From NCBI GenBank assembly GCA_965248435.1, contig OZ252100.1, positions 3,584,001 through 3,648,000 of the forward strand: a stretch of DNA of 64,000 nt. Reading direction: 5' to 3'. Under the pieces are notes generated by a model that ran no database searches, was not told where the DNA came from, and worked only from the letters and a program-made list of their open reading frames with translations. The translations under genes and the position numbers were made by a program. The DNA is from Candidatus Latescibacterota bacterium (GTDB lineage: Bacteria; Latescibacterota; UBA2968; GCA-2709665). Of this stretch, positions 27,291-63,128 are shown one piece after another. Position 1 is the stretch's first letter, and the number at the start of each line of letters is the position of its first letter.

Positions 27291-29249
27291 ATGGTCAATC
27301 CGAAACCCGAAATCTCAAATCGGCAATCGATACAGCGTGCTCCTGAACGGGTCACCCTGCGGGCGTTTATCCTGGGGTTGATCTCGCTCGCCGGGATGTC
27401 CATCTACTCCCAGTTCTACACAAAGCATCTCGAGATCGATTTCCTTCCGCTCACGGCCCTCCTTCCCCTGGTGACCTGGATCGGGTTGAACATCCTGCTG
27501 AGAACGCTGTTTCCACGCCTGGCGCTGTCACGCACCGAGATGCTTCTGATCTTCGGGATCGTCTGGCTCCCTTCAGTGATCGGGGCAACGTGCGGTTATC
27601 TGGTGGGTGTGATCACGTCGCCGGCCTACCACGCCACTCCGGAAAACCGGTTCTGGGAGGTGGGCTGGCCGCATCTGCCCCACTGGATGTTTCTGGATCG
27701 CTCGGAATACGTCCTGGACGGGTTCTTTTCCGGGTTGGCCCCGGGGGATTCGATTCCGTGGGGACCGTGGATCACGCCAATCTTCTGGTGGTTGACGGGC
27801 ATACTCGGGATGGTGATGACGGGTTTCTTCGCCAGTGTGATTTTTTACAGACAATGGACGGACAAGGAGCGCCTGACCTTTCCCCTGGCTACCGTTCCGC
27901 AGGATCTCGTTCGGGTATCCGGCCGGGGCCGGGTGCCTGATGTGATGAAGAACTGGCTATTCTGGATCGGGTTCGCCTGTACGGGAGGTGTGGTATTTTG
28001 GAACATCGCGGGATATTTCATCCTCCACATGCCCAGGATCACGATCTACGATACGATGGGCGTTCACGTCGTGAACATCGGGAGGGGGTTCCCTCTCTAC
28101 CATCTCCGGGTTCAGCCGCTGCTAATGGGCATTGCCTATCACTGTCCGCTGAACCTGCTGTTGACCTTCTGGATCTTTTATCCCCTCAAGATCCTGAAGG
28201 AGGGGCTGATGAACCGGATCGGGTTCTCGGTGGGCCTGGAGGGTCAGCCGGCCACTCCGGGCGAGATATTGACCCTGGAGGCGAACGGTGCCCTCTTTTT
28301 CCTGGTCGCCTGGTCGATCTGGATCGCGCGGGACCACGTGAGGGACACCTTCCGGAAGGCCTTTTCGGGCCTCCGGTCTGAAGACGACGGCCTGCCGGTG
28401 ACTTACCGCACGGCATGGCTGGGGTTCATCTGCTGCGGGATTTTTATGCTGGGCCTGTTCGTCTCGATCGGGTTCAGCTGGCACGTCGCGATCGTCCACC
28501 TGATTCTGGCCTTCGTGGCCTACTTCGGGGTGAGCAAATATTCGGCCGCGACCGGTTTCTTCTTCCTCAGACCGCAGGGCAGCAAAGGGGGACGCATCAT
28601 TCAGACGATCTGGGGAATCGGAAATATGAAGCCCGGTGACCTGGCCGGGTTGGCGATGGTGAACAACCAGGCGTTCGCGGGAGGGGGCGCGCGAATCCTC
28701 GCGATCCCGGCGACGCCGCATTTCTTCCGGCTCCTCGGCGACGCCCTGCGGCGGCATCCCCTGATCTGGGGGGCCTTGCCTGTCGCCGTGCTGACGGCCT
28801 ATGCCGCGGCCCTGGGAACATCGATCAGTCACGGCTACTTGACTGGAAAGATGAATATGATTCGCGGTCCGTTGCCTGGATGGGGCTCGTTTCTGAGGAT
28901 CGTTTCCGTGATGGAAGGGTCATCCGTTTCCTATTTCGACTATCAGAAACTGGGGGTCTGGATCTTCGGGGCTGCGGAGACCGGGCTGCTGACCTACTTG
29001 ATGTCGAGTTTCTCTGGGTGGCCCATCCACCCGCTCGGGTTGGCCTTCCCTCAGTTTTACGGATTTAGCATCCTCCTCGTCTGGCTTCCGAAGTACCTGA
29101 TCGTCCGGTTCGGAGGCGTTCATCTTTATCGACGTTCGATCCCGTTCTGGTACGGGTTCATCGTGGGGTATATCGTCGGAATCGGCCTTTCGACCGTCGT
29201 GGACATGATCTGGTTCCCGACATCCATGCACTGGGTGTATGGCTGGTAG
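27291..29249 (+). CDS. DUF6785/DUF6784-like polytopic membrane protein, copy 1
   Basis: VTLRA, PEN.FW, IPWGPW..P, QW...ERL.FPL, WPIHPLG, K....R.GG..LY; many TM segments. Confidence 0.75.
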   Translation: MVNPKPEISNRQSIQRAPERVTLRAFILGLISLAGMSIYSQFYTKHLEIDFLPLTALLPLVTWIGLNILLRTLFPRLALSRTEMLLIFGIVWLPSVIGATCGYLVGVITSPAYHATPENRFWEVGWPHLPHWMFLDRSEYVLDGFFSGLAPGDSIPWGPWITPIFWWLTGILGMVMTGFFASVIFYRQWTDKERLTFPLATVPQDLVRVSGRGRVPDVMKNWLFWIGFACTGGVVFWNIAGYFILHMPRITIYDTMGVHVVNIGRGFPLYHLRVQPLLMGIAYHCPLNLLLTFWIFYPLKILKEGLMNRIGFSVGLEGQPATPGEILTLEANGALFFLVAWSIWIARDHVRDTFRKAFSGLRSEDDGLPVTYRTAWLGFICCGIFMLGLFVSIGFSWHVAIVHLILAFVAYFGVSKYSAATGFFFLRPQGSKGGRIIQTIWGIGNMKPGDLAGLAMVNNQAFAGGGARILAIPATPHFFRLLGDALRRHPLIWGALPVAVLTAYAAALGTSISHGYLTGKMNMIRGPLPGWGSFLRIVSVMEGSSVSYFDYQKLGVWIFGAAETGLLTYLMSSFSGWPIHPLGLAFPQFYGFSILLVWLPKYLIVRFGGVHLYRRSIPFWYGFIVGYIVGIGLSTVVDMIWFPTSMHWVYGW

Positions 29250-29253
29250 AAAG

Positions 29254-29292
29254 GCCGGGTACCGGGGAATCAAAACACGGGTACCGGGTACC
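29254..29292. repeat. ACCGGGT heptamer-based repeat with AAAACACGGGTACC core (also ~33912-33948, ~37980-38030, ~47695-47724)
   Basis: The same ~40-bp unit recurs shortly after stop codons four times. Confidence 0.75.
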
Positions 29293-29441
29293 GCAAAAGA
29301 TAGGCGAAACTGATGTCCTGACGCATTGGTTCGCCAGCAGGAGCTGTTTACAAAATTGTATGCCAACACCCTGAATCATTCCGTCGCCAACAGGAGTTGG
29401 CTCCTACCGGATACAATCCGCCCATTCAACCGGTAGGAGCC

Positions 29442-29574
29442 GTCTCCCGACGGCGAACAATTCGACCACGGTTTTTCTATCCGTCAACCGAAGGCGGTCT
29501 CCCGACGGCGAACAATTCGACCACGGTTTTTCTATCCGTCAACCGAAGGCCGCCTCCCGGCGGCGAATATTCGG
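29442..29574. repeat. 55-bp tandem repeat (~2.4 copies) arising from a GTAG-type REP
   Basis: Units start at 29442, 29497 and 29552; preceded by an inverted pair GGCTCCTAC...GTAGGAGCC. Confidence 0.85.
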
Positions 29575-29585
29575 TTACTGAGACA

Positions 29586-31538
29586 ATGGCAATACCCCAA
29601 CCCATAACCAAGCCGACCGAACAGCGAGCCTCTGAAGGCGTGACCCTGCGGGCGTTCGTCCTGGGGCTGATCACGATCGTGGGGATGTGCATCTACTCGC
29701 AGTTCTACCGGAAACATCTGGCGATCGATTTCCTGCCCCTTACTGCCCTCCTGCCCCTGGTGTTCTGGATGGGGTTGAACATCCTGCTCAAAACGTTGTT
29801 CCCCCGCCTGGCGATGTCACGTACGGAGATGCTGGCGATCTTCGGGATCGTCTGGCTCCGTCCGTAATGTGGGCAACGAGTATGTACTTGATCGGTACGG
29901 TCACATCTCCGGCCTACTACGCCTCTCCTGAAAACCGGTTCTGGGAGGTGGGCTGGCCCCATCTACCCCACTGGATGTTCCTGGATCGCTCGGACTACGT
30001 CCTGGAGGGGTTCTTCTCCGGGTTGCCCGAGGGGGATTCGATTCCCTGGGGCCCGTGGATCACGCCGCTTTTCTGGTGGTTCGCGGGCATCCTGGGGATG
30101 GTGATGACGGGGTTCTTCGCCAGCGTGATCTTCTACAGACAGTGGGCGGACAAGGAGCGCCTGACCTTTCCGCTGGCCACGGTTCCGCAGGATCTGCTCC
30201 GGGTATCCGGGCGAGGGCGTGTTCCGGATGTGATGAAGAACGGAATCTTCTGGATCGGATTCGCCTGCACGGGAGGGGTGGTCTTGTGGAACATCGCGGG
30301 ATATTTTCTGCTCCACATGCCCAGGATCACGCTCTATGACGGGATGGCGGCCACCGCCGTGAACATAGGGAGGGGGTTTCCTCCCTATTACCTCAGGCTG
30401 CAGCCCCTGCTGATGGGCATCGCCTATCATTGCCCTCTGAACCTGCTGTTTACCTTCTGGATCTTCTATCCCATCAGAATCCTTAAAGAGGGGTTGATGA
30501 ACCGGGTCGGGTTCTCGGTGGGCCTGGAGGGTCAGCCCGCAACTACAGGCGAGATTTTGACGCTGGAAGCGAACGGTGCCCTCTTTTTCCTGGTCGCCTG
30601 GTCGATCTGGATCGCCCGGAATCACCTGAGAGTTACCTTTCGGAAGGCGTTCTCGGGTCCGCGATCCGATGACGATGGCCTGCCGGTCAGCTACCGCGCG
30701 GCCTGGCTGGGGTTCATCTGTTGCGGGGTCTTTATGGTTGGGCTGCTGGTTTCCATCGGGTTCAGCCTGCCCATCGCGATCGTCCACCTGATTCTGGCAT
30801 TCGTGGCCTACTTCGGGGTAAGTAAATACTCGGCCGCGACCGGGTTCTTCTTCCTGAGACCGCAGGGCGGGAAAGGGGGGGGGTATCATCAGGAGTATCC
30901 TGGGACTGGGGAATATGAAGCCGGGTGACCTGGCTGGGCTGGCGATCGTGGGCAACCAGGCGTTTGCTGGAGGGGGGGCACGAATCCTCGCGATCCCGGC
31001 TACGCCGCACTTCTTCCGGCTCCTCGGCGAGTCCCTTCGACGTCATCCGCTGATCTGGGGGGCGGTGCCTGCCGCCGTGCTGACGGCCTTCGTGGCGTCA
31101 CTGGGGACCTCCATCAGCCTGGGCTACTCAACCGGAAAAATGAATGTGTTACGCGGTACAATGCCGGGGTGGAGCTCGTTTCTGAACATCGTCTCCGTTC
31201 TGGAAGGTTCATCCCTTTCCTATTTCGACTATCAGAAACTGGGGGTCTGGATCTTCGGGGCTGCGGAGACCGGGCTGCTGACCTACTTGATGTCGAGTTT
31301 CTCTGGGTGGCCCATCCACCCGCTCGGGTTGGCCTTCCCCCAGTTTTACGGATTCAGCATCTTCCTGGTCTGGCTGCCCAAGTACCTGATCGTCCGGTTC
31401 GGCGGCGTTCAGCTCTACCGGCGCTCGATCACGTTCTGGTACGGGTTCATCGTGGGTTATATCTTCGGAATCGGCCTTTCGACCGTCGTCGACATGATCT
31501 GGTTCCCGACGTCGATGCATTGGGTGTATGGCTGGTAG
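29586..31538 (+). pseudogene. DUF6785/DUF6784-like membrane protein, copy 2, with two frameshifts
   Basis: Colinear with copy 1 across three ORFs. One base is missing in a C-run near 29858 and one extra G lies in G9 at 30875-30883. Confidence 0.75.
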
Positions 31539-31864: not shown

Positions 31865-33820
31865 ATGGCAATTGCAAAACCAGAAACAGATCCGGCGGTG
31901 CAGAAGGCCCCCGAACGGGTGACGCTGCGGGCCTTCGTCCTGGCGTTGATCACGATCGCAGGAATGCACTACTACACGATCAACTACAGGGCGCACTTCA
32001 TGATCCACTTCATGCCGCCTACGGCGCTGCTGCCGCTGGTGACGTGGATCGGGATCAACCTGTTTCTGAGGACAGCGCTTCCCCGCTATGCGCTGTCACG
32101 CACAGAGGTACTGACGATCTTCGGGATCGTCTGGCTCCCGGCCACGATGCCGGGGGGTGTGTCGAGTTATCTGTTGAGTGCCGTCGCCGGTCCTGCCGAG
32201 TACTCGTCTCCGGAGAACCGGTTCTGGGATGTCGGCTGGCCCCATCTGCCTCAGTGGATGTTTTTGAAACCGTCGGAGTATGTCGTCGGGGGATTCTGGT
32301 CCGGGCTCCCAGAGGGAGACGCGATCCCCTGGGGCCCGTGGATCCCGGTCCTCTTCTGGTGGTTCATGGCCGCGCTGGGGATGGGGCTGACCGGATTCTT
32401 CGCCAGCACGCTCTTTTACAAGCAGTGGCTCGAGAACGAGCGACTCATCTTCCCGCTGTCGAGATTCCCGAGCGATCTCCTGGCGCAATCGGAGAACGGT
32501 CGCGTGCCCGACGTGATGAAGAACTGGGTCTTCTGGATCGGGTTCGCGTCTACATCGGGCATCCTCTTCTGGAATATCGCTGGCTACTTCGTCCTGCATA
32601 TGCCCAGGATCATGCTTTTCGAAACATTGGGCACGCACGTCGTCCACATCGGCCGCGGATTTCCCCCCTACCACCTCAGGGTGCACCCATTGCTCATGGG
32701 CCTGGCCTACCACTGCCCCCTGAACCTCCTGTTCACGTTCTGGATCCTCTACCCCCTGGATATCCTGAAACAAGGGATCATGAACCGGGTCGGGTTCTCC
32801 GTCGGGCTTGAAGGTCAGCCTGCCACGCCCAGCCACATTTCCACCCTGGAGGCCAACGGTGCCCTCTTCTTCCTCGTGGGCTGGTCGATCTGGATCGCCC
32901 GACACCATTTGAAAGAGACCTACCGGAAGGCCTTTTCTTCCCCTCGGCAAGCGGACGACGGGGCACCGGTCTCCTACCGGGCGGCCTGGCTGGGGCTCGG
33001 CTGTTCCGGCATCTTCATGCTTGGCCTCTTCGTGTCGATCGGGTTCAGCCTCCCGCTGGCGATTTTTCACGCGTTGATAACGGGGGCGGCCTACTTCGGC
33101 GTGACCAAATACTCGGCCGCGACCGGTTTCGTGTTTTTGAGGCCGCCGTCCGCCAAGGGTCACGCGGTGGTCAACTGGTTGTGGGGGACGGGCAACATGA
33201 CACCGGGAGACCTGTCGGGGATGGCGATCCTGAACAACCAGGGGTTCGCCGGCGGGGGCACGGCACGGATGCTCTCGATTCCGGCCACGCCGCACTTTTT
33301 CCGCCTCCTGGGAGATGCCCTGCGTCGAAACCCGCTCATCTGGGGCGCGCTTCCCGCAGCACTGCTGGTCGCCTTTGTCGCGACCATGGGCGCCAGCATT
33401 CAAATGAGCTACGTGGAAGGGCGACTGAATTTGAGCTCGGGCCCTACCGGTTGGGGCAAGTTTCTGGGGATGGTCCCTGTTCTGGAAGGGGCGTCGGTCA
33501 CGCGCTTCGACTACCAGAAGTGGCTGGTCTGGATCTTCGGCGGGGCCGAGGCGGGATTTTTGACGTTTATGATGTCGCGATTTTCGGGCTGGCCGATCCA
33601 CCCGCTTGGGATCGCCTTCCCCCAGTTCTACGGATTCAGCGTCTTTCTGGTCTGGCTGCCCAAGTTTCTGATCGTCCGCTACGGCGGCGTGACTCTTTTC
33701 CGGCGCTCCCTGCCGTTCTGGTATGGTTTCCTGGTCGGGTACCTCGTCGGCGTCGGCGCCTCGACCGTCGTCGACATGATCTGGTTTCCGACCTCCATGC
33801 ATTGGGTGCATGGATGGTAA
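31865..33820 (+). CDS. DUF6785/DUF6784-like membrane protein, copy 3
   Basis: Same motifs as copy 1; ends MHWVHGW. Confidence 0.75.
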   Translation: MAIAKPETDPAVQKAPERVTLRAFVLALITIAGMHYYTINYRAHFMIHFMPPTALLPLVTWIGINLFLRTALPRYALSRTEVLTIFGIVWLPATMPGGVSSYLLSAVAGPAEYSSPENRFWDVGWPHLPQWMFLKPSEYVVGGFWSGLPEGDAIPWGPWIPVLFWWFMAALGMGLTGFFASTLFYKQWLENERLIFPLSRFPSDLLAQSENGRVPDVMKNWVFWIGFASTSGILFWNIAGYFVLHMPRIMLFETLGTHVVHIGRGFPPYHLRVHPLLMGLAYHCPLNLLFTFWILYPLDILKQGIMNRVGFSVGLEGQPATPSHISTLEANGALFFLVGWSIWIARHHLKETYRKAFSSPRQADDGAPVSYRAAWLGLGCSGIFMLGLFVSIGFSLPLAIFHALITGAAYFGVTKYSAATGFVFLRPPSAKGHAVVNWLWGTGNMTPGDLSGMAILNNQGFAGGGTARMLSIPATPHFFRLLGDALRRNPLIWGALPAALLVAFVATMGASIQMSYVEGRLNLSSGPTGWGKFLGMVPVLEGASVTRFDYQKWLVWIFGGAEAGFLTFMMSRFSGWPIHPLGIAFPQFYGFSVFLVWLPKFLIVRYGGVTLFRRSLPFWYGFLVGYLVGVGASTVVDMIWFPTSMHWVHGW

Positions 33821-34100
33821 TGTAACGCTAGGCAATTGCGGAATGCCCGATTGGGGATTGCGGAATGAAAAACAAATCTCACCGCGGAGACGCAGAGGAC
33901 GCGGAGAAGACTGGGTACCGGGAAACCAAAACACGGGTACCGGGTACCGTAAAACCGTGGATCGTCGTTCGTGGTTCGTGTAGAGACGCCCCGCCGGGGC
34001 GTCTCTACGGCTAACGGGGGATTGAGGGGGATTTCCCGATGATAACTGGATTAGCTTTACGCGATACGAAACGCGATATTACGGGTGAGAGAGGTCATCC

Positions 34101-35372
34101 ATGAAGCTCACAGCGGAACAGGAAGAAGCGCTGAAAGGCCGGTCCGGTCCGGTCCTGGCCAGATACATGAAATGGTTTGTCGATTGGGGCCACGCCATGG
34201 GGGCGGAGAGGCTGGTTCCGGTCACGAACGTTCACTGCATCCTACGTACCCCGCTCCTGAAAGGGATGTCGGAAGACACACTGGATGTCTACATCGAGGA
34301 GTTTCGAGCGCTCTGCAAGCACAAGGTGAAATGCAAGACCCTGACGCACGCGAAGACGCAATGCAGGACTTCGGCCCCTTCAGGATTGACGCAGATCACG
34401 TCCGAGGATGAAATAGGAATCAGCCAGAAGGAGCTCGATTTTCAAGAAGAGCTCAACCGGATCGCTCAAGAGGCAGGAATTTCGACGACGTGGTCCTGCA
34501 CGCCCTATCTCGTGGGCAGCGTCCCCGAATTCGGAGAGATCTGTGCGTGGACGGAGTCTTCCGCGGTGGTCTTCGCCAACTCGATCCTCGGGGCGAGGAC
34601 AACCCGCCACGGGATGGAAAGCTCGCTGGCGGCCGCGTTCCTGGGCTGGGTGCCGGAATTCGGCGTCCTGCTGGATGAGAATCGGAAGGCCTCGATCCAG
34701 GTGGATGTCGACGCCGACATGAGATCGAAGAGCGATTGGGGCGCGCTTGGATATTTTGCGGGCGAGATCGCAGGAACGGAGATCCCGGTTTTCGTCGGTG
34801 TGGATCGGATCGGTCCAGAAGAGGCGAAGCAGCTGTCGGCGACGCTGCCGTATTCGGGTCAGGGTACGACGATGTTTCATATCGCTGGCGTGACGCCCGA
34901 GGCGCCGTCTCTGGACAGCGTACTCGACCCGGATAGAGAGATCAGGCGCATTTCCTTCGGCGAGAATGAAAGGCGAGAAGCCTACGGGAAGATGACCACG
35001 TTGGGGAAGGGGGAGGCGGTCGACGCAGTGATTCTGGGCTGTCCCTTCAGCTCCTTGGAAGAGCTGGAAGAGATCTCCAACCATTTGCAGAAGGAGAAAG
35101 TCGCTCCAGGGGTGAGGTTTATCGTCTGTACCTCGCACGACACCCTGGATCTCGCTTCGAAGGCGGGTTACGCGGACGTTATCCATCAGGCAGGAGGAAC
35201 GTTGATGGTGGACAGCTGTCCCGGTGCGATGGGGAAGATGCGTCCACAGAATGTGGTCTCGAACTCCTTCAAGCAGGCCTTCTATGGACGCAGCGCCCTG
35301 GAGGCCAGGACGGGCGTGGCGGACCTTGGCGGCTGCATCGAAGCGGCGATCAAGGGAACCTGGATGGCATGA
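34101..35372 (+). CDS. aconitase X catalytic (large) subunit, DUF521
   Basis: MKLTAEQE..L.G..G, SCTPY, WTESSAVVFANSILGART, FHIAGVTPEA, LGCP, DSC. Confidence 0.9.
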   Translation: MKLTAEQEEALKGRSGPVLARYMKWFVDWGHAMGAERLVPVTNVHCILRTPLLKGMSEDTLDVYIEEFRALCKHKVKCKTLTHAKTQCRTSAPSGLTQITSEDEIGISQKELDFQEELNRIAQEAGISTTWSCTPYLVGSVPEFGEICAWTESSAVVFANSILGARTTRHGMESSLAAAFLGWVPEFGVLLDENRKASIQVDVDADMRSKSDWGALGYFAGEIAGTEIPVFVGVDRIGPEEAKQLSATLPYSGQGTTMFHIAGVTPEAPSLDSVLDPDREIRRISFGENERREAYGKMTTLGKGEAVDAVILGCPFSSLEELEEISNHLQKEKVAPGVRFIVCTSHDTLDLASKAGYADVIHQAGGTLMVDSCPGAMGKMRPQNVVSNSFKQAFYGRSALEARTGVADLGGCIEAAIKGTWMA

Positions 35373-35782
35373 AAAAACAGAAGATTCGAGGGAGGAAGGT
35401 GATCGGAGGCAAGGCCTCGGGTGAGGCGGCCGTGAGCGAGACCGCGCTCTGCTTCAGGTCGGAGTTCAACCCGATCGAAGGGCGCGTGATCGATTCGAAT
35501 CACCCCATGTACGACAGGATCCTTACCGGCAAGGTCGTGGTTATGCCGTCGACGAAGGGGTCGTCCGGAAACACGATGTTTATGAGAATCGCCTCTCTCG
35601 AGGGCAAGGCGCCTTCCGCCCTGATCCACAAAGAGATCGATTCGCCCCTCGTGCTCGCGTGCGCGATCGCGAACATTCCCCTGGTGCAGATCGACGAGAA
35701 GGCGTTTGGCTCGATACAGGATGGAGATTGGGTTGAGGTGGATGCGGATAGGGGAATTATTGAGGTGTCGAGGAAAGAGTAG
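35369..35782 (+). CDS. aconitase X swivel (small) subunit, DUF126
   Basis: G.A.GEA, G.VID..HP, PSTKGSSG; ATGA overlap with the large subunit. Confidence 0.9.
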   Translation: MKKQKIRGRKVIGGKASGEAAVSETALCFRSEFNPIEGRVIDSNHPMYDRILTGKVVVMPSTKGSSGNTMFMRIASLEGKAPSALIHKEIDSPLVLACAIANIPLVQIDEKAFGSIQDGDWVEVDADRGIIEVSRKE

Positions 35783-37977: not shown

Positions 37978-38637
37978 AGACCGGGTACTGGGTACCGGGA
38001 AGTCAAAACACGGGTACCGGGGTTCGGGTATCCGATGCCCTAGAAATTGAAGGAAATCATTTTCTCCCCCCTTTCCTCCAGGGAAGCATGTCCCGCGCGA
38101 GACGCGGGAGGGAGCCGGAGGGGTTAGGTCTGAATCGGTATAAATGTTTATTTGTAAATGACTTAAGAACAACATAAAACGTGATGTGTAACAATGTTTC
38201 GGTCCAACGGAGGGTCGGCTTTCCGCACTATTTGGAGTAAGACTTTGTTTTTTAAATTGTTAGTGAGAAATTGTATTCAAGATCGAAAAATTCGGGGTCA
38301 TTCTTCTTTTTTTGCTTGACCTAACTGATTTAGGACGTTAATTTTATAGATCAGTATTTGGATAATGGCCATTTTTATGGGGGGTGTTATGAAAGAACGC
38401 CCGATCGTTTTGTACTACAAATTTATTTTTGGCCGCACAGCCCGGGGTGCAGATGTGCGGCATTTCTATGTCTGACATGAAAGGAGGGATGCCCGCGCGC
38501 GCGATTGCAAAAGATTCCGAACTTCAAACGCGGTGATTAAAACGTAATTTTTCAAGATAGGAGGCTAAGTGGCAAAGAGATCTAGATTTAAACGTTCGTT
38601 AGGTTTAGTTTCGCCGGGTAACAACCAAGGAGGAAGT

Positions 38638-41739: not shown

Positions 41740-41828
41740 TCGAATGCGGATTGTGGATCGGGGATTGCGGATCGGAAATGCCATCCAATATCCCCGATTC
41801 CAGATCTTAACAGAAGGAGTGCTTTACG

Positions 41829-47689: not shown

Positions 47690-47796
47690 AGGATCGGGTA
47701 CCGGGAATGCAAAACACGGGTACCGTAGCATGTTGTATCGCACCGTGGCAGACGATTGATATGTATCTCGACAGAAGACGGAGCAATAATCAATAT

Positions 47797-53629: not shown

Positions 53630-53870
53630 ACCAAGCGACAGAAGGTTCAGGTGTGTCGGTAAGAACAGATAGCGAGAGCCAGGCTAGAGCTGAATCATCC
53701 CGGCTTTAGTCATACGGGAGCAGGCGACAGGCGACGATCCACTGAGCGTTTGGTGAGCGTCCAGCGCGGGAATGAATTCCCGCGCTCGTGAAACAGGAAG
53801 TCCGCCCTGCGGCGGACTGAAGCCAGACCTCTTGCTCCACCTTCTGAGATGCGGATTAGTGGAGGTTCGT

Positions 53871-54563
53871 GTGGGTGAAAGCCAGGCAGAGATCTTTGAG
53901 CGCGATGGATTCCTGGTCGTGAACCGCATTTACGATGCCGAGGAGATGGTCAGTTGGAAGGAAGCCGTCGTCAGGATTATGCGGGAGGAGGGGAGTCTGG
54001 ACAATCTGCCTTCAGGCGTGAGGGTCTGGATGCTCGATGAACTTCACCCCTTCTTCAGAGAACGTATGAAGGACCCGTGCGTTATCGACGTCCTGAGGCG
54101 AGTCGTCGGTCCTGATCTCGAGTTTCTAAGCGTGAAGGCGGTCTACAAGAACCGCAGCACGACGTTCGAGTCGCCGTGGCACCAGGACTGGTATTACTGG
54201 AGAGGTGCCAGCAAGATCTCGATCTGGATCGCCCTGGATGACGCGAACTCCGAGAACGGCTGTCTCAAGATGATCCCCGGCAGCCACAAGAAACGGTTCG
54301 ATGTCCAGAAGGTAAAAGAAACGACCGGTTTCGGATGGCGGGCCGAGAGCGAAGCGCTGGAGGATCTGCCGGTCGTCACGCTGGAAGTCGCGTGTGGCGA
54401 CGCCGTCTTCTTCCACGATCAGATGCTCCACAGCTCTTATCCGAATAGATCGGGGACAGACCGATGGTCTATGATATCGACTTACCGGGATGCCTCCGTC
54501 GCCGACGACTCCACCAGCTGGGATCGTTCCATGTTGGTGAGTGGGCTGTCCGTCAATGGATGA
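53871..54563 (+). CDS. phytanoyl-CoA dioxygenase family protein
   Basis: PWHQD, WIALDDA..ENGCL..IPGSH, GDAVFFH..LH.S..N; GTG after GGAGG. Confidence 0.9.
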   Translation: MGESQAEIFERDGFLVVNRIYDAEEMVSWKEAVVRIMREEGSLDNLPSGVRVWMLDELHPFFRERMKDPCVIDVLRRVVGPDLEFLSVKAVYKNRSTTFESPWHQDWYYWRGASKISIWIALDDANSENGCLKMIPGSHKKRFDVQKVKETTGFGWRAESEALEDLPVVTLEVACGDAVFFHDQMLHSSYPNRSGTDRWSMISTYRDASVADDSTSWDRSMLVSGLSVNG

Positions 54564-54738: not shown

Positions 54739-57228
54739 ATGTTAGCGAACCTCTTACGCAGACGCAAATCGGCCCAGTTCCAGGAGATCGAGGAATACCG
54801 GGATCTGCTGGAAACACCCGACAGCTTTGAAGAGGGCTTCAACACCAAGACGATCCTGGGCGCCCTCTTCGTCTCGGTCATCATGGTCCCGGGCAACATC
54901 TACCTGGAGCTGATGATCGGGGGCTCGATCGGGGCGGCCGCGCAATGGGTCACGATCATCCTCTTCCTGGAGCTGTCCAAGCGGTCTTTCACCGTGTTGA
55001 AGCGGCAGGAGCTCTACCTCCTCTACTACGTCACGAGCGCGCTCGTGGCCCGGGAGACCGGCGCCTCCGACGGCATGCTCTGGAACCAGTATTTCGTCCA
55101 GTCTCCCGCGGCCAAACAGTTCGGGATCGCCAAGCTGATCCCCTGGTGGTGGGCCCCACCGCCCGGTTCGGAGGCCCTCGCCGAGCGGACCTTCTTCCAC
55201 CAGGACTGGCTCTGGCCGATCTCGATCATGGTCCTCGGCTTCATCATGGCGCGCATCGCCTGGTTCACCGCCAGCTACGTCCTGTTCCGGCTGACTTCCG
55301 ACTATGAGCGCCTCCCGTTTCCGTTCGCTCCGATCAACGCGCAGACCGCGATGGCCCTGGCCGAGGAGAGCAGCGGGGAGATCACGTGGAAATGGCGCGT
55401 CTTCAGCATCGGGGCGGTCATCGGGGTGGTCTGGGGCGCGATCTATGTGGGGGTCCCCGCGATCACGGGGGCGTTTATGGAGGAACCGGTCCAGATCATC
55501 CCGATCCCGTGGGTCGACTTCACGCAGTACACCGGCAACTTCCTGCCGGCGACGCCCCTCGGGTTCACGCTTCACCTGGGGCCGATCTTTGCCGGTCTGC
55601 TCGCGCCGTTCTGGGCGGTGATGGGGTCGTTTCTCGGTGTCGTGGTCCATTCGATCGCCAGCCCGATCCTGCACCATTACGGCTACATGCCTCACTGGAT
55701 CATGGGCATGGATACGATCCAGACGCACTTTGTGACCGGGATCGACTTCTGGATGTCTTTCGGGATCGGACTCACGTTCGCCATCACCGTCATCGGCCTG
55801 TATCAGGTCTTCACGGGTGTGCGATCTGCGAGGATCGAGAAACAGGAGAAGGGGAGCTGGACGCCTCCGGCCGGACGCGGAGACTTCCGGATCTGGATCT
55901 GCATCATCCTGTTCTGCATCGCCAGCATCTACACGATCGCGCTCGCCAAGGTCCTCTTTCCGGCCCTGATCGGCAGGACCGTGATGATCTTCTTTCTGGT
56001 CTTCGCCTTCGTCTACACGCCGCTCATCTCCTTTGTCAACGCGCGGTTGGACGGACTCGTCGGCCAGCAAACCAACATTCCGTATGTCAAAGAGACCACG
56101 ATCTTCCTCAGCGGCTTCCAGGGGGTCGACATCTGGTTCGTCCCGTTCCCGATGACCACCTACGCAGCCGAAGCCAATAAATTCAGAGAGATCGAACTGA
56201 CCGGGTCGAAGTTCACCGGCATCCTGAAGGCCGAACTCTTCATGGTTCCGCTGATTCTGTTCACCAGTTTTTTCTACTGGTCCTACATCTGGAAGCTGGC
56301 GCCGATCCCCTCGGATGCCTATCCCTACGCCCAGTTGATGTGGCCGCTCCGCGCGCTGCAGCAGAGCGTCTGGTATACGAGCACGATGCGCAGTGAAATC
56401 GTGCCCGACGCCAGGGCGGGAAACATCACCTGGATTCCGGGAAACCTGACCGACGGGGGCTGGTGGTACTGGCGTGCCCGGACACGGGAGGACACAGACT
56501 CGGAGGCGTTCAGGAAGCGATTCGAGGCCTGGATGTCGGGTCCCGAGAAGAAGGATTCGAACAGCGACGGGAAGATCGATGAGGAGGATCTCAGGGCGGT
56601 CGGTCCCTGGTCGCGGGTCGGAACCTTCTATACTAACTTCGAAGGTACAGACCCACCGCCTGACCCGCCACCGTCGGTCCGCGTCGAGCCCTTAACCCGA
56701 AGGATCTCAGAAACCTTGCCGTCCACGCCACCCGCGATTAAACGGCCCGTGGACGGCCACCACGTGGACACGCCCAACCCCAAGCTCATGATCGAAGGGT
56801 TTCTGGGCGCCGAGGGGCAGACCTGGGTCTACGAGTTCGAGGTCGATGAGGTCCCTTCATTCGATGGGGCCTTCCTTCAGAGTTCGGACGACAAGCCGAT
56901 CCTGTTCGAGGCCCTGAAGCCGAAGGTGATCGCGATCGGTTTCGCCGTCGGCCTGTTGACGTTCATCATCCTGTCCGTCTTCGGGCTTCCGATCCTCCTG
57001 ATCTTCGGCTACGTGCGGAGCCTGACCAACATCCCGCACGTGATGATCACCGAAATCATCGGCGCGCTCCTCGCGCGCTACTATTTCCAGAAGAAATACG
57101 GCAGGCAACAGTGGCGCCTCTACGCCGCCGTCCTGCTCGCCGGTTTCTTCGCCGGCATGGCCCTCGTGGGGATGGGCTCTGTCTCGATCGCGATGATACA
57201 GAAATCGGTCTCTGTATTGCTGTTCTGA
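54739..57228 (+). CDS. OPT-superfamily-like 'peptide transporter' membrane protein with inserted soluble domain
   Basis: FEEGF...T.LGA, AAQWVT.ILF.E, ERLPFPFAP, W..APIPS.AYP; soluble insert at ~56390-56900. Confidence 0.65.
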   Translation: MLANLLRRRKSAQFQEIEEYRDLLETPDSFEEGFNTKTILGALFVSVIMVPGNIYLELMIGGSIGAAAQWVTIILFLELSKRSFTVLKRQELYLLYYVTSALVARETGASDGMLWNQYFVQSPAAKQFGIAKLIPWWWAPPPGSEALAERTFFHQDWLWPISIMVLGFIMARIAWFTASYVLFRLTSDYERLPFPFAPINAQTAMALAEESSGEITWKWRVFSIGAVIGVVWGAIYVGVPAITGAFMEEPVQIIPIPWVDFTQYTGNFLPATPLGFTLHLGPIFAGLLAPFWAVMGSFLGVVVHSIASPILHHYGYMPHWIMGMDTIQTHFVTGIDFWMSFGIGLTFAITVIGLYQVFTGVRSARIEKQEKGSWTPPAGRGDFRIWICIILFCIASIYTIALAKVLFPALIGRTVMIFFLVFAFVYTPLISFVNARLDGLVGQQTNIPYVKETTIFLSGFQGVDIWFVPFPMTTYAAEANKFREIELTGSKFTGILKAELFMVPLILFTSFFYWSYIWKLAPIPSDAYPYAQLMWPLRALQQSVWYTSTMRSEIVPDARAGNITWIPGNLTDGGWWYWRARTREDTDSEAFRKRFEAWMSGPEKKDSNSDGKIDEEDLRAVGPWSRVGTFYTNFEGTDPPPDPPPSVRVEPLTRRISETLPSTPPAIKRPVDGHHVDTPNPKLMIEGFLGAEGQTWVYEFEVDEVPSFDGAFLQSSDDKPILFEALKPKVIAIGFAVGLLTFIILSVFGLPILLIFGYVRSLTNIPHVMITEIIGALLARYYFQKKYGRQQWRLYAAVLLAGFFAGMALVGMGSVSIAMIQKSVSVLLF

Positions 57229-57371
57229 GCGGCCAACTTGGGGACACGAGGCGATGCGGGTCGATGCATGACATGGAAAATCCCCCCTGCCCCCCTTTAA
57301 AAAATGGGGGAGATTGCTCTTTCTGAGGGAGTACCTATCCAGGAGTAAATTCTTCCCCCTTTTAAAAAGGG

Positions 57372-58677
57372 TGTACAGACTTGGGACATGGTATACACCC
57401 GTTTGGACACATGGCATACACTTCTAAAGTGGTGCATAATAGACCTCCAACAAGGAGGTCTTTATGCCGTGGCCGGAGGTATCCATTGTGTCTTCTCGGT
57501 TGGAGTTCGTCACGTTGGCGATGTCCGATGAGGTCAATATCCGTGTACTCTGCAGGCGGTTCGGGGTCTGTCCGAGTACTGCCTACAAGTGGATCAGACG
57601 CTATGAGCGTGATGGACCTGCGGGATTAGAGGATCAGTCTCGTCGTCCGCATTATAGTCCAAAGCGTACTCCCAAGAACATTGAAAGCCAGATTCTCGTC
57701 GTGCGTGATCAGCACCCGAGCTGGGGTGGACGGAAGATCCAGGATATTCTGCTCAAGAAAGGTATTTCATCGGTTCCTAGCCCCAGCACGATTACCCAGA
57801 TTTTGAGGCGAAACGATCGGCTTGATCCTGCCGAATCGGAAAAGAACAAAACCTGGCGCCGCTTCGAGGAGAAAGTCCCAAACGCCTTATGGCAAATGGA
57901 CTTCAAGGGTCACTTTCCCCTCTGGAAAGGGCGGTGTCACCCGTTAACCGTTCTGGACGATCATTCTCGTTATTCGGTCGGCCTGCAGGCCTGTGGCAAT
58001 GAGCAGGCGCCGACCGTAAAAGAACGCCTCACAGGCGTTTTCGAGAGGTATGAGTTGCCGGATCGGTTCCTGGTGGACAACGCTACACCTTGGGGCGGAA
58101 GAAGCCCGTGGGATCTGACGGGATTAACCATCTGGTTGATCCGGTTAGGCATCGGCGTGATCCACAGCCGACCTTATCATCCTCAGACACTGGGTAAGGA
58201 CGAGCGATTCCACAGAACACTCAACGAGGAAGTGCTTCGACATCGCGCCTGGCTGGATCTGGACCAGTGTCAGCGTGCGTTCGACAAGTGGCGACTCACA
58301 TACAATCTGGAACGGCCTCACGAAGCGCTAGATATGGCGGTGCCCGCAGAGCGATATCGTCCCAGCTCCAGAACCTTCCCAAAACAGCTTCTCCCGCTCG
58401 AATATGCACCTGGAGACCTGGTGAGGAAGGTTCAGGACAAAGGCGAGTTTTCGTTCAAAGGCCGGTTGTTCCAAGTCAGTAGAGCGTTGAGAGGCCATCC
58501 TGTCGCAATGAGAGCCACCAGGATCGACGGAGTGTTCGACGTCTTCTTCTGCCACAAAAAACTATCCACAATCGATCTAAACAGCACCCCAAAGGGGACT
58601 ATGACATCCCTATCCCCCTAGTCAAATGTGTATACCATGTCCCCGAACACCTGTTTACCATGTATCCGGTCTGTACA
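57372..58677 (+). mobile_element. IS481-family insertion sequence (1306 bp)
   Basis: Termini TGTACAGAC...GTCTGTACA, subterminal CATGG repeats, 5-bp TSD AAGGG at 57367-57371 and 58678-58682. Confidence 0.9.
57464..58621 (+). CDS. IS481 family transposase
   Basis: MPW start, HTH (LCRRFGV...YKW..RY), LWQMDFKG, DDHSRY, VDN, HPQTLGKDERFH, YN.ERPHEAL. Confidence 0.95.
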   Translation: MPWPEVSIVSSRLEFVTLAMSDEVNIRVLCRRFGVCPSTAYKWIRRYERDGPAGLEDQSRRPHYSPKRTPKNIESQILVVRDQHPSWGGRKIQDILLKKGISSVPSPSTITQILRRNDRLDPAESEKNKTWRRFEEKVPNALWQMDFKGHFPLWKGRCHPLTVLDDHSRYSVGLQACGNEQAPTVKERLTGVFERYELPDRFLVDNATPWGGRSPWDLTGLTIWLIRLGIGVIHSRPYHPQTLGKDERFHRTLNEEVLRHRAWLDLDQCQRAFDKWRLTYNLERPHEALDMAVPAERYRPSSRTFPKQLLPLEYAPGDLVRKVQDKGEFSFKGRLFQVSRALRGHPVAMRATRIDGVFDVFFCHKKLSTIDLNSTPKGTMTSLSP

Positions 58678-60699: not shown

Positions 60700-61130
60700 C
60701 GTCAGGTCTGCCCTGAGAGATAGATGGTGTAAGCCTTTAAAATATACGTCAATATTAATGAAATAGGCTTGCAAGATCTGTGCCTTGATGGAGATTGCCG
60801 TACAAAAACGTATAAATTACAGTTTATCAATATATTAACGCATTTACTACGAGTGTTGAGAGGGCTGGTTGATTGGGAGGGTTGTTATGTGTACGTGAGA
60901 CCTAACCCCCCTGGCCCCCCTTCCCTAAAGGGAAGGGGGGATGAGATGGTGAAACCCGCTATCTGACTATTGGTCCGAAAAAAGATGAGCCACTGGCGGC
61001 GGACTCGAGATAGGGGGATTTTTGTTTTTGATTTTAGCTTTTCGGGATTTATCCTGCTGACGTAATTGCGTGAATTGACTCACGAAGCGTCTTGAAATAA
61101 GCGCTTTTCATTTGTCTGAGGAAATCGGTT

Positions 61131-63128
61131 TTGGCTGAATCGGCCCCAGCGGCCCCAATGCCTGAACAAGCACCGTCATCCAGCGCGCGCGGGATCACGC
61201 TTCGTTCCGTGGCCGTTGGGATCGGGATCGTGGTCCTCGTCAACATCTGGGTGGTCTACGCGGAGACGATCGTCAGGTGCACCCGGCTGAATCTACAGAC
61301 GCTTCAGCTCACTCTGCTTTCGCTTTTCGTCCTCCTCGTCGGGCTCGCCAACCCGCTCCTGAAACTCGTTCAGAGGAGGTTCGCGTTTTCGTCCTCCGAG
61401 CTGCTCGCGGTCGTGGCGATCGGTATGGTGGGCTCGGTCGTGCCCACGACGGGGGTCTCCGGCTTTCTCCTGGGCATGATTTCGTCGCCGTTCTATTTCG
61501 ACACGCCGGAGAATATGTGGGGGGAGTTCTATCACCCCTACTTGAGTACGTGGGCCGTGCAGACGGACCGGGAGGCGCTTCGGGTGTTTTATGAGGGCCT
61601 TCCACCGGGCGCTGAGGCCCCCTGGACATCCTGGATCGTTCCCCTGGGCTGGTGGGCGAGCATCATCGCGGCCATCTTCATCGGATCTGCCTGCGCCATG
61701 GTGATCCTTCGCAAGCCGTGGGTGGAACACGAGCGGCTGGCCTATCCACTCGCGACGGTGCCGATCGAGATGGTAGAGGGCGCCGATTCAAACCGCCTGC
61801 TGCCGGAGTTTATGCAGGGCAGGCTGTTCTGGATCGGAGCTATCGTACCCTTCTCGCTCTTTTTCTGGAATACGATGCACTGGCTCTACCCACCCATTCC
61901 GCACTTCATTCTCTATCCACCGCCCCACTTCGAATACTTCCGGTTTACGCGATACTCTCCATTCATCGTCGTGCAGCCGCTCCAGTTCTACACGATCGGC
62001 ATCTGTTACTTCGCCAACCTGCAGGTGCTGTTCAGCGTCTGGTTCTTCTTCCTGGTGCACGTCGTGGAGGGGGGGATCAAGAATCGATTGGGCTACAGGA
62101 TCGGGTGGTCGTCCGATTCGTTCAGCGCCGACCCGCCGACGGAGGCCTGGCAGTGCCACGGGGCGCTTGCCTTCTTGGTGATCTGGCGGCTCTGGGTTGC
62201 GCGGCATCACTTGCGAGATGTCTTCTTGAGGGCGGTTCGATCGGCCCATCCCGCCGATGACCGCGGCGAGATGCTTTCCTATCGCGTCGCAGTCCTCGGT
62301 CTTCTGCTGAGCCTCTGCTACGCGATGTTCTGGCTTCATCAGATCGGGATGGATCCGGTCACCATCGCGATGTTCATGTTTTCAGGGGGGATTATCTACC
62401 TGGGCATGGCGAGGATCTCAGCGGAGGCGGGCGTGCCCGCTGCACAGTCGTCGGTGTCGCCGCAGGCGTTCGTGATGGACCTCAGGGGCACGGATGTGAT
62501 GTCCCGGGCAAACCTGACCGGCATCCTGCTTTCCTACTCGCTGATCGATTACATGCGCGGGCTGTTTACGCCCAGTCTCGCTCACGCGGCGAGGTGGGGT
62601 GACCTGATCAGGGGGAACCGGCGCCTCCTGCTGCTCTGGGTCGGTATCGGGGTGCTTGCCGGTCTGAGCGCTTCCGTATTGTTCACGATCCACCTCGGCC
62701 ACAATTACGGGGCCTACAACTTCTCGGGTCTCTTCTTCGGGGGGAATCCAAAACAGGTCTTTTCCTCGACAGCGGGGTTGATGCGGACGCCGGTGGCCCC
62801 GGATCCGATGCGGCTCCTGTTCTACGGGATCGGCGCTGTTGTGATGGCGCTGTTGACGTTCATGAGAAACCGGGTCGGCTGGTGGTCTCTCCATCCGATC
62901 GGATTCGTCCTCTCCGCGGCGGACAACAACGCCTCTCTGGTGATGCCTGTGTTTATCGCCTGGGCGCTCAAGATGATATTGATGCGTATCGGGGGCGTTA
63001 CGCTCTATCGACGCACAAAACCATTGTTCCTGGGTCTGCTTGTCGGCTATACGTTCGGCGTAGTCTGGTCGTTCGTCGTGGATGCGATCTGGTTTCCGGG
63101 GCACGGGCACTCTGTGAGTGGATGGTAG
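61131..63128 (+). CDS. DUF6785/DUF6784-like membrane protein, copy 5 (divergent)
   Basis: GITLRS, TPEN.W, PW..W..P, KPW...ERLAYPL, WSLHPIG, K..LMRIGG..LY. Confidence 0.75.
   Translation: MAESAPAAPMPEQAPSSSARGITLRSVAVGIGIVVLVNIWVVYAETIVRCTRLNLQTLQLTLLSLFVLLVGLANPLLKLVQRRFAFSSSELLAVVAIGMVGSVVPTTGVSGFLLGMISSPFYFDTPENMWGEFYHPYLSTWAVQTDREALRVFYEGLPPGAEAPWTSWIVPLGWWASIIAAIFIGSACAMVILRKPWVEHERLAYPLATVPIEMVEGADSNRLLPEFMQGRLFWIGAIVPFSLFFWNTMHWLYPPIPHFILYPPPHFEYFRFTRYSPFIVVQPLQFYTIGICYFANLQVLFSVWFFFLVHVVEGGIKNRLGYRIGWSSDSFSADPPTEAWQCHGALAFLVIWRLWVARHHLRDVFLRAVRSAHPADDRGEMLSYRVAVLGLLLSLCYAMFWLHQIGMDPVTIAMFMFSGGIIYLGMARISAEAGVPAAQSSVSPQAFVMDLRGTDVMSRANLTGILLSYSLIDYMRGLFTPSLAHAARWGDLIRGNRRLLLLWVGIGVLAGLSASVLFTIHLGHNYGAYNFSGLFFGGNPKQVFSSTAGLMRTPVAPDPMRLLFYGIGAVVMALLTFMRNRVGWWSLHPIGFVLSAADNNASLVMPVFIAWALKMILMRIGGVTLYRRTKPLFLGLLVGYTFGVVWSFVVDAIWFPGHGHSVSGW

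Follow-up and report, generated by a model that had tools for sequence, protein, structure and literature searches.

An OPT-fold and M28-like/FtsX gene trio of Latescibacterota as a candidate inner-membrane import module

What do five paralogous membrane-protein genes, an OPT-like gene and a gene joining a peptidase-like domain to an FtsX-type permease do together in one region of a Latescibacterota genome? The question is raised by a 64,000-nucleotide stretch of a Candidatus Latescibacterota bacterium (GCA_965248435.1, contig OZ252100.1), which we call the window and which covers C1:3584001-3648000 of a 5.67-Mb, two-contig genome. The original prediction for this stretch read the genes as a modular importer in which a single-copy core, made of the OPT-like and FtsX proteins, partners with interchangeable paralogs and is fed by a TonB receptor. 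We find that three of the genes, encoding a DUF6785/DUF6784 protein, a 1521-aa M28-like/FtsX protein and an 829-aa OPT-like protein, belong together as a trio, and that they are a module which occurs throughout Latescibacterota, the window trio being a copy of recent duplication into which insertion sequences (ISs) have broken. On balance we lean slightly towards a trio that acts as an inner-membrane complex for import, with the remaining, orphan DUF6785 paralogs as stand-alone importers from the same expanded OPT-fold family. Throughout, "fusion" protein or gene denotes the 1521-aa M28-like/FtsX type, as distinct from natural fusions of about 2,100 aa in which this type is further joined to DUF6785.

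Conservation of the trio and its natural fusions

A Pfam scan of the 46 open reading frames (ORFs) in the window, together with the structure models described below, identified the trio and the elements that interrupt or follow it:

45626..47689, + strand: DUF6785/DUF6784 paralog 4 (687 aa), operon-linked, trio gene 1 (Pfam E 1.5e-90 / 3.1e-19)
47798..48850, - strand: IS30-like element (transposase 47811-48794; HTH_38 + rve, 28-nt terminal inverted repeats)
49064..53629, + strand: M28-like/FtsX fusion protein (1521 aa), trio middle gene (FtsX E 9.8e-15, Peptidase_M28 partial E 1.1e-6, MacB_PCD)
53772..54563, + strand: PhyH-family 2OG/Fe(II) dioxygenase, between the fusion and 829-aa genes (Pfam E 1.9e-34)
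54739..57228, + strand: 829-aa protein, predicted divergent OPT/YSL fold, Ig-like beta-sandwich inserted at residues ~550-717, trio gene 3
57372..58677, + strand: IS481-like element (transposase 57464-58621; Pfam, terminal inverted repeats)

Both IS elements are complete; the IS30-like element separates paralog 4 from the fusion gene, and the IS481-like element trails the 829-aa gene. The position of the PhyH gene is not conserved; a remnant stands there only in the genus-mate locus L021.

We scanned one genome per species and recovered 396 loci with a relative of the 829-aa protein, the best 80 of which, many from close kin, were examined. In 76 of these 80 loci the gene immediately before the 829-aa homolog is the fusion gene, and in 2 a 6-9 kb insertion parts the two; in another 2 the fusion has no match, and only 1.2 and 2.6 kb of upstream sequence are present there. 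Of the 66 loci in which the fusion gene is complete and 2.2 kb or more of sequence precedes it, 50 have a DUF6785 gene no more than 900 bp upstream of the fusion. The linkage also appears among the five deep-branching genomes examined: G004 and G030 carry DUF6785, fusion and 829-aa-type genes in this order, G003 carries the fusion, the 829-aa type and then its sole DUF6785 gene, and G008 and G035 carry the fusion/829-aa pair only. The complete chromosome of G143 holds seven fusion-type genes, at least four of them in full trios with DUF6785 and 829-aa-type genes; two of these trios run DUF6785, fusion, 829-aa and two run fusion, DUF6785, 829-aa, and one further fusion gene has a DUF6785 neighbor only.

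Phylogenetic profiling had been proposed as a check on the original prediction, and the families do co-occur. Among 168 genomes of the phylum, PF20581 (DUF6785) and the 829-aa family were each detected in 154; 153 genomes have both and 13 have neither; both families are missing in all 13 genomes of a single family (f10), and the only discordant genomes, G025 and G028, are 57% and 67% complete, respectively. This pattern amounts to roughly one shared loss, kin being non-independent.

The genome studied here carries three fusion/829-aa pairs, two of which have a DUF6785 partner. The second trio (positions 3066486-3076099, locus L019) has its own DUF6785 gene directly upstream, and the third pair (5387209-5393996, locus L020) is 41% identical with no DUF6785 gene nearby. 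Between the window and L019 copies, DNA identity is 86% in the DUF6785 gene, 88% in the fusion gene and 99.5% in the 829-aa gene, and the paralog 4 protein is 85% identical to its L019 counterpart. The two 829-aa copies (window 54743-57229, L019 15617-18103) are thus far more alike than the fusion and DUF6785 genes beside them, an indication of either gene conversion in the recent past or a later, independent duplication beside the IS481-like element. Just upstream of the second trio, an FAA-hydrolase gene (L019 7293-8146) is read as two overlapping ORFs, a possible frameshift.

In some genomes the middle protein is covalently joined to its DUF6785 partner. The public protein P0356 (2120 aa) is 43% identical to the window fusion protein over 1439 residues and then continues with a complete DUF6785 and DUF6784. 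When its DUF6785 part was searched against proteins of 1,166-3,710 aa (E <= 1e-10), 36 clusters including the query were recovered, 35 of them with FtsX and DUF6785 together; these are mostly about 2,090-2,160 aa long, come from several sources and show 51-89% identity to the query part. In G143 the fused form is an uninterrupted 2119-codon frame. No literature linking FtsX with OPT or M28 proteins was found, the papers returned being judged by their titles and abstracts.

Given the conserved adjacency, the shuffled order within the trio and the covalent fusion, a physical three-part membrane module of the DUF6785, fusion and 829-aa proteins is a well-supported prediction. Synteny and the natural fusions of the middle protein with DUF6785/DUF6784 make it most likely that the three proteins would act as one complex, and the functional link that the original prediction drew between the three families is borne out by adjacency, co-occurrence, linkage in deep families and fusion alike. 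The adjacency might still be incidental: three genes of separate functions might travel jointly only because of duplication and IS activity in this genome. In favor of this, the window copy is broken up by two IS elements and a foreign PhyH gene, and the window and L019 copies are recent duplicates at the identities given above. We strongly disfavor this explanation and regard it as highly improbable, since the order is kept across families of the phylum (76/80 and 50/66 loci) and in deep lineages, and gene fusions occur in at least 35 clusters.

Further features of related loci were observed. In a distant clade (L062-L099) a 331-aa family-less gene and one for a PqqD-like peptide chaperone come after the pair (examples are L079 12390-13385 and L098 13348-13779), and a Hpre_diP_synt_I-family membrane gene often precedes it. 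In L024-L040, which belong to one genus, multi-BMC-domain genes lie a few genes downstream of the trio (for example L028 13359-14519).

Predicted fold of the DUF6785/DUF6784 and 829-aa families

Besides paralog 4, the window holds four members of the DUF6785/DUF6784 family, all outside the trio:

27291..29249, + strand: paralog 1 (652 aa), orphan, predicted OPT/YSL fold (Pfam E 5.3e-71 / 1.3e-12; 68% identity to paralog 3)
29586..31538, + strand: paralog 2, apparent pseudogene with two frameshifts (~29864, ~30875-30878; Pfam in pieces, Logan contigs)
31865..33820, + strand: paralog 3 (651 aa), orphan (Pfam E 2.3e-67 / 4.2e-12)
61131..63128, + strand: paralog 5 (665 aa), orphan, structure-modeled (Pfam E 3.6e-114 / 1.3e-22)

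The five homologous membrane genes of 650-690 aa that had been called from the letters are indeed one Pfam-defined family. DUF6785 (PF20581) followed by DUF6784 (PF20580) matches above gathering scores in the four intact genes, and in the frameshifted paralog 2 (at 29586) the models match only in frame pieces. Neither model matches the 829-aa protein, for which no Pfam or NCBIfam family rises above its cut-off. The sequence motif said to unite this OPT-like protein (gene at 54739) with the paralogs was also recovered, as ERLPFP at residue 190 of the former and as ERLxFP/ERLxYP at the equivalent position, residues 193-208, of the latter. We found no publication naming DUF6785, DUF6784, PF20581 or PF20580 (supplementary files lay outside the scope of the search), which agrees with the earlier description of these families as uncharacterized.

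We modeled paralog 5 from an alignment of the genome's 22 intact paralogs (pLDDT 80.9, pTM 0.84) and the 829-aa protein from an alignment with 43 homologs (pLDDT 71.0). Foldseek searches of the PDB returned, for each model, only two matches at E <= 0.001, both of them chains of barley Yellow Stripe 1 (YS1), with E 4.1e-9 and TM 0.63/0.69 for the DUF6785 model and E 8.9e-7 for the 829-aa model. In VIA-align the DUF6785 model aligned to YS1 over 553 of 600 residues (Z 22.2, rmsd 4.4 A; next chain Z 8.2) and the 829-aa model over 539 of 600 (Z 18.7, rmsd 4.8 A; next chain Z 5.7), with 11-12% identity to YS1 within the structural alignments. Because YS1 is the sole high match and the alignments run over nearly the whole length, the models place both families in the OPT/YSL fold (TC 2.A.67; PF03169; YS1 PDB 7wsr, 7wst) from end to end, and DUF6785 and DUF6784 are predicted to be two parts of one transporter fold. 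Both families also resemble OPT/YSL proteins in size and in their all-helical membrane build. The OPT-like label first given to the 829-aa protein therefore holds in comparison with a YSL structure, and the DUF6785 proteins, too, match a transporter fold rather than an unrelated one.

OPT members are described as cation:solute symporters with 16-17 membrane segments, their prokaryotic representatives being uncharacterized, and for one Bacteroides subcluster the uptake of xylan oligosaccharides has been predicted from gene context (available portion of PMC3061005). YS1 itself is a proton-driven dimer with core and scaffold domains, for which an elevator-like model has been put forward (PMC9691689, in the text available). 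The families studied here differ from this group in several respects, however. Residues ~550-717 of the 829-aa model form an inserted beta-sandwich whose matches are Ig-like (Z 5-6 in VIA-align), copies in Latescibacterota genomes reach tens per genome, and one DUF6785 branch is linked, in some cases covalently, to an FtsX-type protein, an arrangement for which we found no OPT description. Three public DUF6785/DUF6784 proteins of 824-874 aa (P0293, P0320 and P0350) have some 200 additional residues between their two Pfam parts, just where the 829-aa protein has its Ig-like insert.

The M28-like/FtsX protein and a possible transport mechanism

The gene at 49064 had been described as a 1521-aa M28-like/FtsX fusion, and domain searches agree. 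The FtsX domain scores 55.1 bits (cut-off 25.5), MacB_PCD (cut-off 27) reaches 24.3 bits with the full-length sequence and 29.3 bits with the fragment 51914-52780, and the Peptidase_M28 match covers the first half of the model (HMM positions 1-96 of 193). A Walker A motif is absent from the protein. Hydropathy marks membrane segments at residues 11-29, 823-841, 855-873, 883-901, 946-970, 1244-1262, 1282-1300 and 1328-1346; under the topology rule of MacB, which we assume to apply, residues 30-820 and 970-1240 would be periplasmic and the last ~165 residues cytoplasmic. It is at this ~165-residue C-terminal end that the natural fusions attach their DUF6785 part.

Sequence searches with the N-terminal region matched the PA-domain aminopeptidase 2ek8 (E 9.9e-5) and, weakly, Nicalin 7tm3 (E 0.025). 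Compared with Aeromonas aminopeptidase 2anp, the window protein has, at the zinc-ligand and catalytic-base positions, Tyr for the first His, Glu for the bridging Asp and His-His for Glu-Glu. These sites are kept across 70 family members (Tyr291 in 68, Asp293 in 67, Glu306 in 67, His338 in 68 and His339 in 66), so that "pseudo-peptidase" is a fair label for the ectodomain; because the replacements are themselves conserved in 66-68 of the 70 members, an altered metal- or ligand-binding site, rather than a dead one, is possible. The PA + M28 build of Nicalin and the transferrin receptor, whose M28 domains we take to be inactive, is similar in that the sequence matches are weak and zinc and catalytic positions are replaced in the 1521-aa protein, and differs in that the replacements in the 1521-aa family are conserved.

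Conservation is also high in the membrane part. The loop ERFREIGIYSAVGLAP between two membrane helices is almost wholly invariant in 33 aligned proteins, and in the same set the three extra helices and large parts of the C-terminal domain vary little or not at all. The ESM Atlas gave no usable match for the C-terminal domain (residues 1355-1521), and the same overall architecture appears there in clusters of 58, 299, 59 and 83 members that bear automatic names only; LysM occurs in 19% of the members of one of these clusters. A complex prediction for the whole 829-aa protein with fusion residues 812-915, which span the three extra helices, gave a median of 0.25 against a mark of 0.32, and, being of one fragment and control-free, weighs neither way.

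The nearest characterized relatives of this protein are the Type VII ABC permeases (MacB, LolC/E and FtsX). The 1521-aa protein shares with them the FtsX domain and the MacB periplasmic core, and four hydrophobic segments flank its periplasmic domain as they do in MacB. However, it adds an N-terminal PA/M28-like ectodomain of about 800 residues, three or four extra helices and a family-less C-terminal domain of about 165 residues, and its constant partners are OPT-fold proteins rather than a membrane-fusion protein or hydrolase. The linked ATPase expected of such permeases is likewise seen only in part. The original prediction noted that no ABC importer ATPase, solute-binding protein or TRAP gene is nearby, and this stands for the window, where the ABC_tran, solute-binding and TRAP families had no match among the 46 ORFs scanned; it does not extend to the related loci, since a 262-aa ABC ATPase gene of LolD/FtsE/MacB type lies directly upstream of the trio in 16 of the 80. 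The best NCBIfam models for this linked ATPase are LolD, a darobactin exporter, FtsE and MacB. In the present genome its ortholog (C1:2242849-2243628, 76% identity) is not accompanied by a permease gene. An ATPase is probably involved in the trio, ATP coupling being an assumption; the conservative reading would be one shared ATPase acting in trans, and coupling may also do without any ATPase.

Known members of the FtsX/MacB permease class act in extraction, export or hydrolase control. The trio could accordingly be an envelope or export device of the MacB/LolCDE/FtsEX kind, in which an ATP-driven FtsX module acts on some periplasmic target (for example a peptide, a cell-wall fragment or a ribosomal peptide product), what results is released or recycled by the OPT-fold proteins, and the orphans are unrelated importers. 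The FtsX and MacB_PCD domains with the almost wholly invariant ERFREIGIYSAVGLAP loop, the models that the linked ATPases score best against, the LysM domains of one same-architecture cluster, the PqqD-like gene after the pair in the distant clade and the one copy in the genome that lies among housekeeping genes are all consistent with such a device. It would, however, run counter to every characterized OPT member, all of which are uptake systems in the available portion of PMC3061005; no gene for a peptidoglycan hydrolase or for an exit duct in the outer membrane is conserved next to the trio, and LysM is confined to a minority of one related cluster. We consider an envelope or export role unlikely.

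Under the import reading that we prefer, the periplasmic M28-like domain would bind, and not cleave, a peptide-like or glycopeptide-like solute and would pass it to the OPT-fold proteins, which would import it by proton-coupled elevator transport as proposed for Yellow Stripe 1. The ectodomain, receptor-like and non-canonical at its catalytic site, is anchored by a four-helix module of MacB/FtsX type and by four further membrane helices; the FtsX-type module would transmit conformational work and would probably be driven by a LolD/FtsE-type ATPase encoded elsewhere (C1:2242849-2243628). The orphan DUF6785 genes would most likely encode stand-alone proton-coupled importers of glycan or glycoprotein breakdown products. 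By analogy only, TRAP and other binding-protein-dependent carriers also have a periplasmic binding module that feeds an elevator-type secondary carrier; the trio differs from them in having no DctP, DctQ or DctM homology, and none of these families was matched in the window.

Several results weigh against the import reading. At the sequence level, the OPT homology of both families is at best marginal: the 829-aa protein falls short of the cut-off of the Pfam OPT model (PF03169; 19.3 bits where 25.8 are required, HMM positions 530-617 only), with collinear sub-threshold matches at the C-termini of both 829-aa copies, and at E <= 0.01 the DUF6785 genes have no match to this model. Searching PDB sequences with a profile of either family returned nothing, and the profile-profile comparison of DUF6785 with the 829-aa family is weak (probability 4.4%, E 0.0093). 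A regular-expression search found no NPG or KIPPR motif in the 829-aa protein or in paralogs 1, 4 and 5; these motifs are common in OPT proteins and not universal in the family (PMC3061005, available portion). The counts over the best 80 of 396 loci, many of them from close relatives, are not independent, 16 of the 66 pair loci have no DUF6785 gene anywhere in the locus (within 10 kb), and pairs without a nearby DUF6785 gene also occur at L020 and in G008 and G035. No ATPase gene is present among the 46 ORFs of the window, and in G143 none of 14 LolD-type matches lies within ~90 kb of the seven fusion-type genes. Finally, the direction of transport and the substrate are drawn by analogy from family precedent and neighboring genes, and complex formation, binding and transport by the members are predicted.

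It is also conceivable, as a tentative extension, that the trio represents a new hybrid transporter class in which a MacB/FtsX mechanotransmission module with an M28/PA ectodomain is coupled to one or two OPT-fold carriers, sometimes as a single polypeptide. The OPT-fold pair may then heterodimerize, ATP might gate the carrier or a proton-driven carrier might power the FtsX module, and orphans may plug in. We regard this idea as doubtful at present.

Orphan paralogs, glycan-related neighborhoods and the outer-membrane cassette

DUF6785 genes far exceed the trios in number. The genome holds 23 of them (24 matches, two being pieces of the pseudogene), of which 18 lie within C1:3.61-4.01 Mb, all on the + strand, including six in tandem at 3992906-4005873. 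A first look at the phylum, in which 28 candidates corresponded to the 24 matches of this genome, gave 1-8 candidates per genome in small-genome families and up to 88 in G141; first-look matches to the 829-aa family in relatives reached about 9, against up to about 88 DUF6785 candidates. A DUF6785-family profile built from 22 paralogs recovered 6,962 representative proteins (50% identity clusters) at E <= 0.001 among 1.84 billion, and some public DUF6785 proteins are labeled Planctomycetota. The original prediction had expected copy numbers of one core to many paralogs. The many paralogs are there, with 23 DUF6785 genes, and the single-copy core is not: this genome has three fusion/829-aa pairs, and G143 has seven fusion-type genes with at least four trios.

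Within the window, paralogs 1-3 form a tandem triplication (68-86% identity), and paralogs 4 and 5 are 27-35% identical to paralogs 1-3 and to each other. Paralog 2 is full length in three reading-frame pieces that are 75-86% identical to paralog 1 (residues 6-652); relative to paralog 1, one base is missing near 29864 and one is added in a G-run near 30875-30878. In runs X1 and X3, which represent one sample and possibly the assembly's source sample, Logan contigs span 29521-30536, and one X3 contig spans 30586-31245, with 0 differences from the assembly. Paralog 2 is therefore an apparent pseudogene whose breaks are present in reads and not only in the assembly. Assembly error was considered as another origin of the frameshifts and is disfavored, since the Logan contigs match at both sites, with the proviso that the runs may come from the source sample.

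A FastTree phylogeny was computed from 59 proteins, 39 operon-linked DUF6785 proteins and 20 other paralogs of this genome. Of the operon-linked proteins, 35, paralog 4 included, group in a single clade with an SH-like support of 96; among the 20 other paralogs, one lies inside this clade and 19 lie outside. Among the operon-linked exceptions, three distant-clade rows branch apart and L066 sits on a long branch of doubtful placement. The operon-linked DUF6785 proteins are thus a distinct subfamily, and because they form their own clade and G143 carries several complete trios, dedicated partners fit better than interchangeable ones.

What the orphans might transport is suggested by their neighbors, listed here for the window:

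34101-35372, + strand: AcnX large subunit (Pfam E 8.2e-107)
35369-35782, + strand: AcnX swivel subunit (Pfam E 5.6e-20)
35993-36883 and 37087-37977, + strand: two PIG-L family deacetylase/amidase genes (Pfam E 1.2e-16 and 8.3e-16)
63359..64000, - strand: C-terminal part of an MlrC-like peptidase, truncated by the window end (MlrC_C E 8.1e-50)

Pfam confirmed each of the enzymes named at the outset (AcnX, two PIG-L, PhyH and MlrC-like). Paralogs 1-3 precede the AcnX genes, which at 34101..35782 give a partial, below-cut-off NCBIfam match to cis-3-hydroxy-L-proline dehydratase, and the two PIG-L genes, which are 78% identical to each other. The earlier claim that all genes are co-oriented does not hold, since the MlrC-like, DUF3179, ankyrin and IS30 transposase genes lie on the minus strand. 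Around DUF6785 paralogs outside the window, we scanned 75 ORFs and found four sulfatases, a GH127 protein, two BNR/sialidase-like, two pectate-lyase/GH28-like and GHL10-like proteins, as well as three DHDPS-family aldolases, three GFO/IDH/MocA oxidoreductases, xylose-isomerase-like barrels and MR/MLE dehydratase, RraA-like, DAO and M24 proteins. A 6-member GHL10-like family often adjoins the DUF6785 paralogs.

Latescibacterota have been predicted to degrade sulfated algal cell-wall glycans and hydroxyproline-rich glycoproteins, with GH127 among their enzymes, and the transporter inventory of that study does not mention the DUF6785 family in the portion available (PMC4454575). The gene context of the orphans fits the glycan- and glycoprotein-degrading lifestyle predicted for the phylum, and by this analogy the orphans would import breakdown products, possibly including glycopeptide fragments. 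Peptide-only substrates, in keeping with the earlier amide/peptide label, were considered for the orphans and are not favored, the neighbors being mostly glycan-active enzymes and sulfatases. In RNA run X23 only a small share of words was found, in short, imperfect pieces.

A 13-member family without a Pfam match (~470-830 aa) recurs beside DUF6785 genes and is a candidate family of glycan-active enzymes or binding proteins. Its members lie at:

window 18646-20202
L102 8361-9875
L104 583-3072, 3206-5692, 10088-11617 and 12173-13693
L105 9999-11558
L106 28-714 and 9919-11424
L108 8252-9799 and 10951-12444
L110 1999-3411 and 3411-4811

Directly upstream of the window trio stands an outer-membrane cassette (38569-45336, + strand), made of a CarboxypepD_reg/Plug protein, an 821-aa family-less protein and a PorV/PorQ-family protein:

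38569..41739, + strand: TonB-dependent-receptor-like outer-membrane protein (1056 aa; CarboxypepD_reg + Plug; Pfam, sub-cut-off Plug)
41829..44294, + strand: 821-aa protein of no known family, receptor partner, with a weak type IX secretion C-terminal signal
44338..45336, + strand: PorV/PorQ-family outer-membrane protein (NCBIfam NF033709 E 1.3e-39, 136.7 bits against a cut-off of 90)

The TonB receptor cassette of the original prediction was recovered in part. A CarboxypepD_reg/Plug protein is present, but its Plug domain falls just below the cut-off (23.5 against 23.9 bits), the SusC/RagA model matches its N-terminal 115 positions only, and no barrel family matches even at E <= 10. Neither the receptor nor the 821-aa protein has a PDB sequence match, and the latter matches neither SusD nor anything else in Pfam, NCBIfam or the PDB; it has a 40%-identical paralog in L108 with the same gene order. 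Five copies of the cassette occur in the genome, all on the + strand (besides the window copy, C1 3035352-3042064, 3766652-3773228, 3891500-3898155 and 3959339-3965857), with identities of 43-45% for the receptor, 33-40% for the ~800-aa protein and 50-53% for the PorV-like protein. Two of the five lie just upstream of a DUF6785 gene.

The islands of glycan and glycoprotein catabolism in which the orphans lie resemble SusC/SusD loci in that they likewise hold a TonB-type receptor with a partner protein, glycan-active enzymes, sulfatases and an inner-membrane carrier. They differ in that no SusD family is matched, the partners are the ~800-aa family-less protein and the PorV/PorQ-like protein, and the carrier is of predicted OPT fold. 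The cassette may be the phylum's counterpart of SusC/SusD. A term search of a 2026 review of bacterial glycoside transporters gave no mention of OPT, TC 2.A.67 or the DUF families (PMC13543919).

No receptor was found near the trio in any of the 80 related loci, and the other two cassette genes occur there only in the genus-mate L021. The TonB-type link to the trio is thus local to the genus and lends no support to the idea that the module is fed by this receptor. This bears directly on the arrangement first proposed, in which a few core units of fusion and 829-aa protein serve interchangeable DUF6785 proteins that dock in trans under TonB-fed supply. Such docking would account for DUF6785 genes far outnumbering the pairs (23 to 3 here, ~88 candidates to ~9 matches in relatives) and for orphans unaccompanied by a fusion gene. 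Also in its favor, the families occur together throughout the phylum, DUF6785 can work joined to an FtsX protein, as seen from the natural fusions, and two of the five receptor cassettes adjoin a DUF6785 gene. It sits poorly, however, with the separate clade of operon-linked proteins (35/39 inside, 19/20 other paralogs of the genome outside), with the several complete trios of G143, each with its own DUF6785 gene, with the modeled orphan being a complete OPT/YSL fold (553/600 YS1 residues aligned) and with the receptor count of 0/80, and characterized OPT members all work without such partners (PMC3061005, in the portion available). We rate interchangeable docking as quite improbable.

The IS30-like element (47798-48850) reaches a contig depth of ~1100-1700 in runs X1 and X2, compared with ~40 in the flanking genes, and contigs break at 47797; because of this depth we conclude that it is highly multi-copy in the sample of these runs. 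Three ISL3-family transposase genes (window 15152-16366; L111 11979-13193 and 17164-18378) have equal Pfam scores and fall in one cluster, and the two in L111 flank the DUF6785 gene at C1:5029497-5031413. A 48-nt element of GGGTACCGGG units (family D12) sits just past the stop codons of paralogs 1, 3 and 4 and of the second PIG-L gene (29251-29298, 33907-33954, 47690-47737 and 37984-38031, respectively). Several intergenic regions with this element are joined to one another in Logan contigs at raised depth, which suggests a dispersed REP-like repeat. Elsewhere in the window, a 635-aa ORF (5312-7219) combines an aldo/keto reductase domain with a chlorite-dismutase-family domain.

Returning to the import complex that we prefer for the trio, the analysis offers a fold and a likely role for two Pfam families of unknown function that together comprise about 7,000 representative clusters, and it points to the inner-membrane uptake step of Latescibacterota. 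We found no described precedent for the pairing of an FtsX-type protein with OPT-fold proteins, sometimes within one polypeptide, and this pairing would provide a testable case of a primary-transporter module coupled to a secondary-carrier fold.

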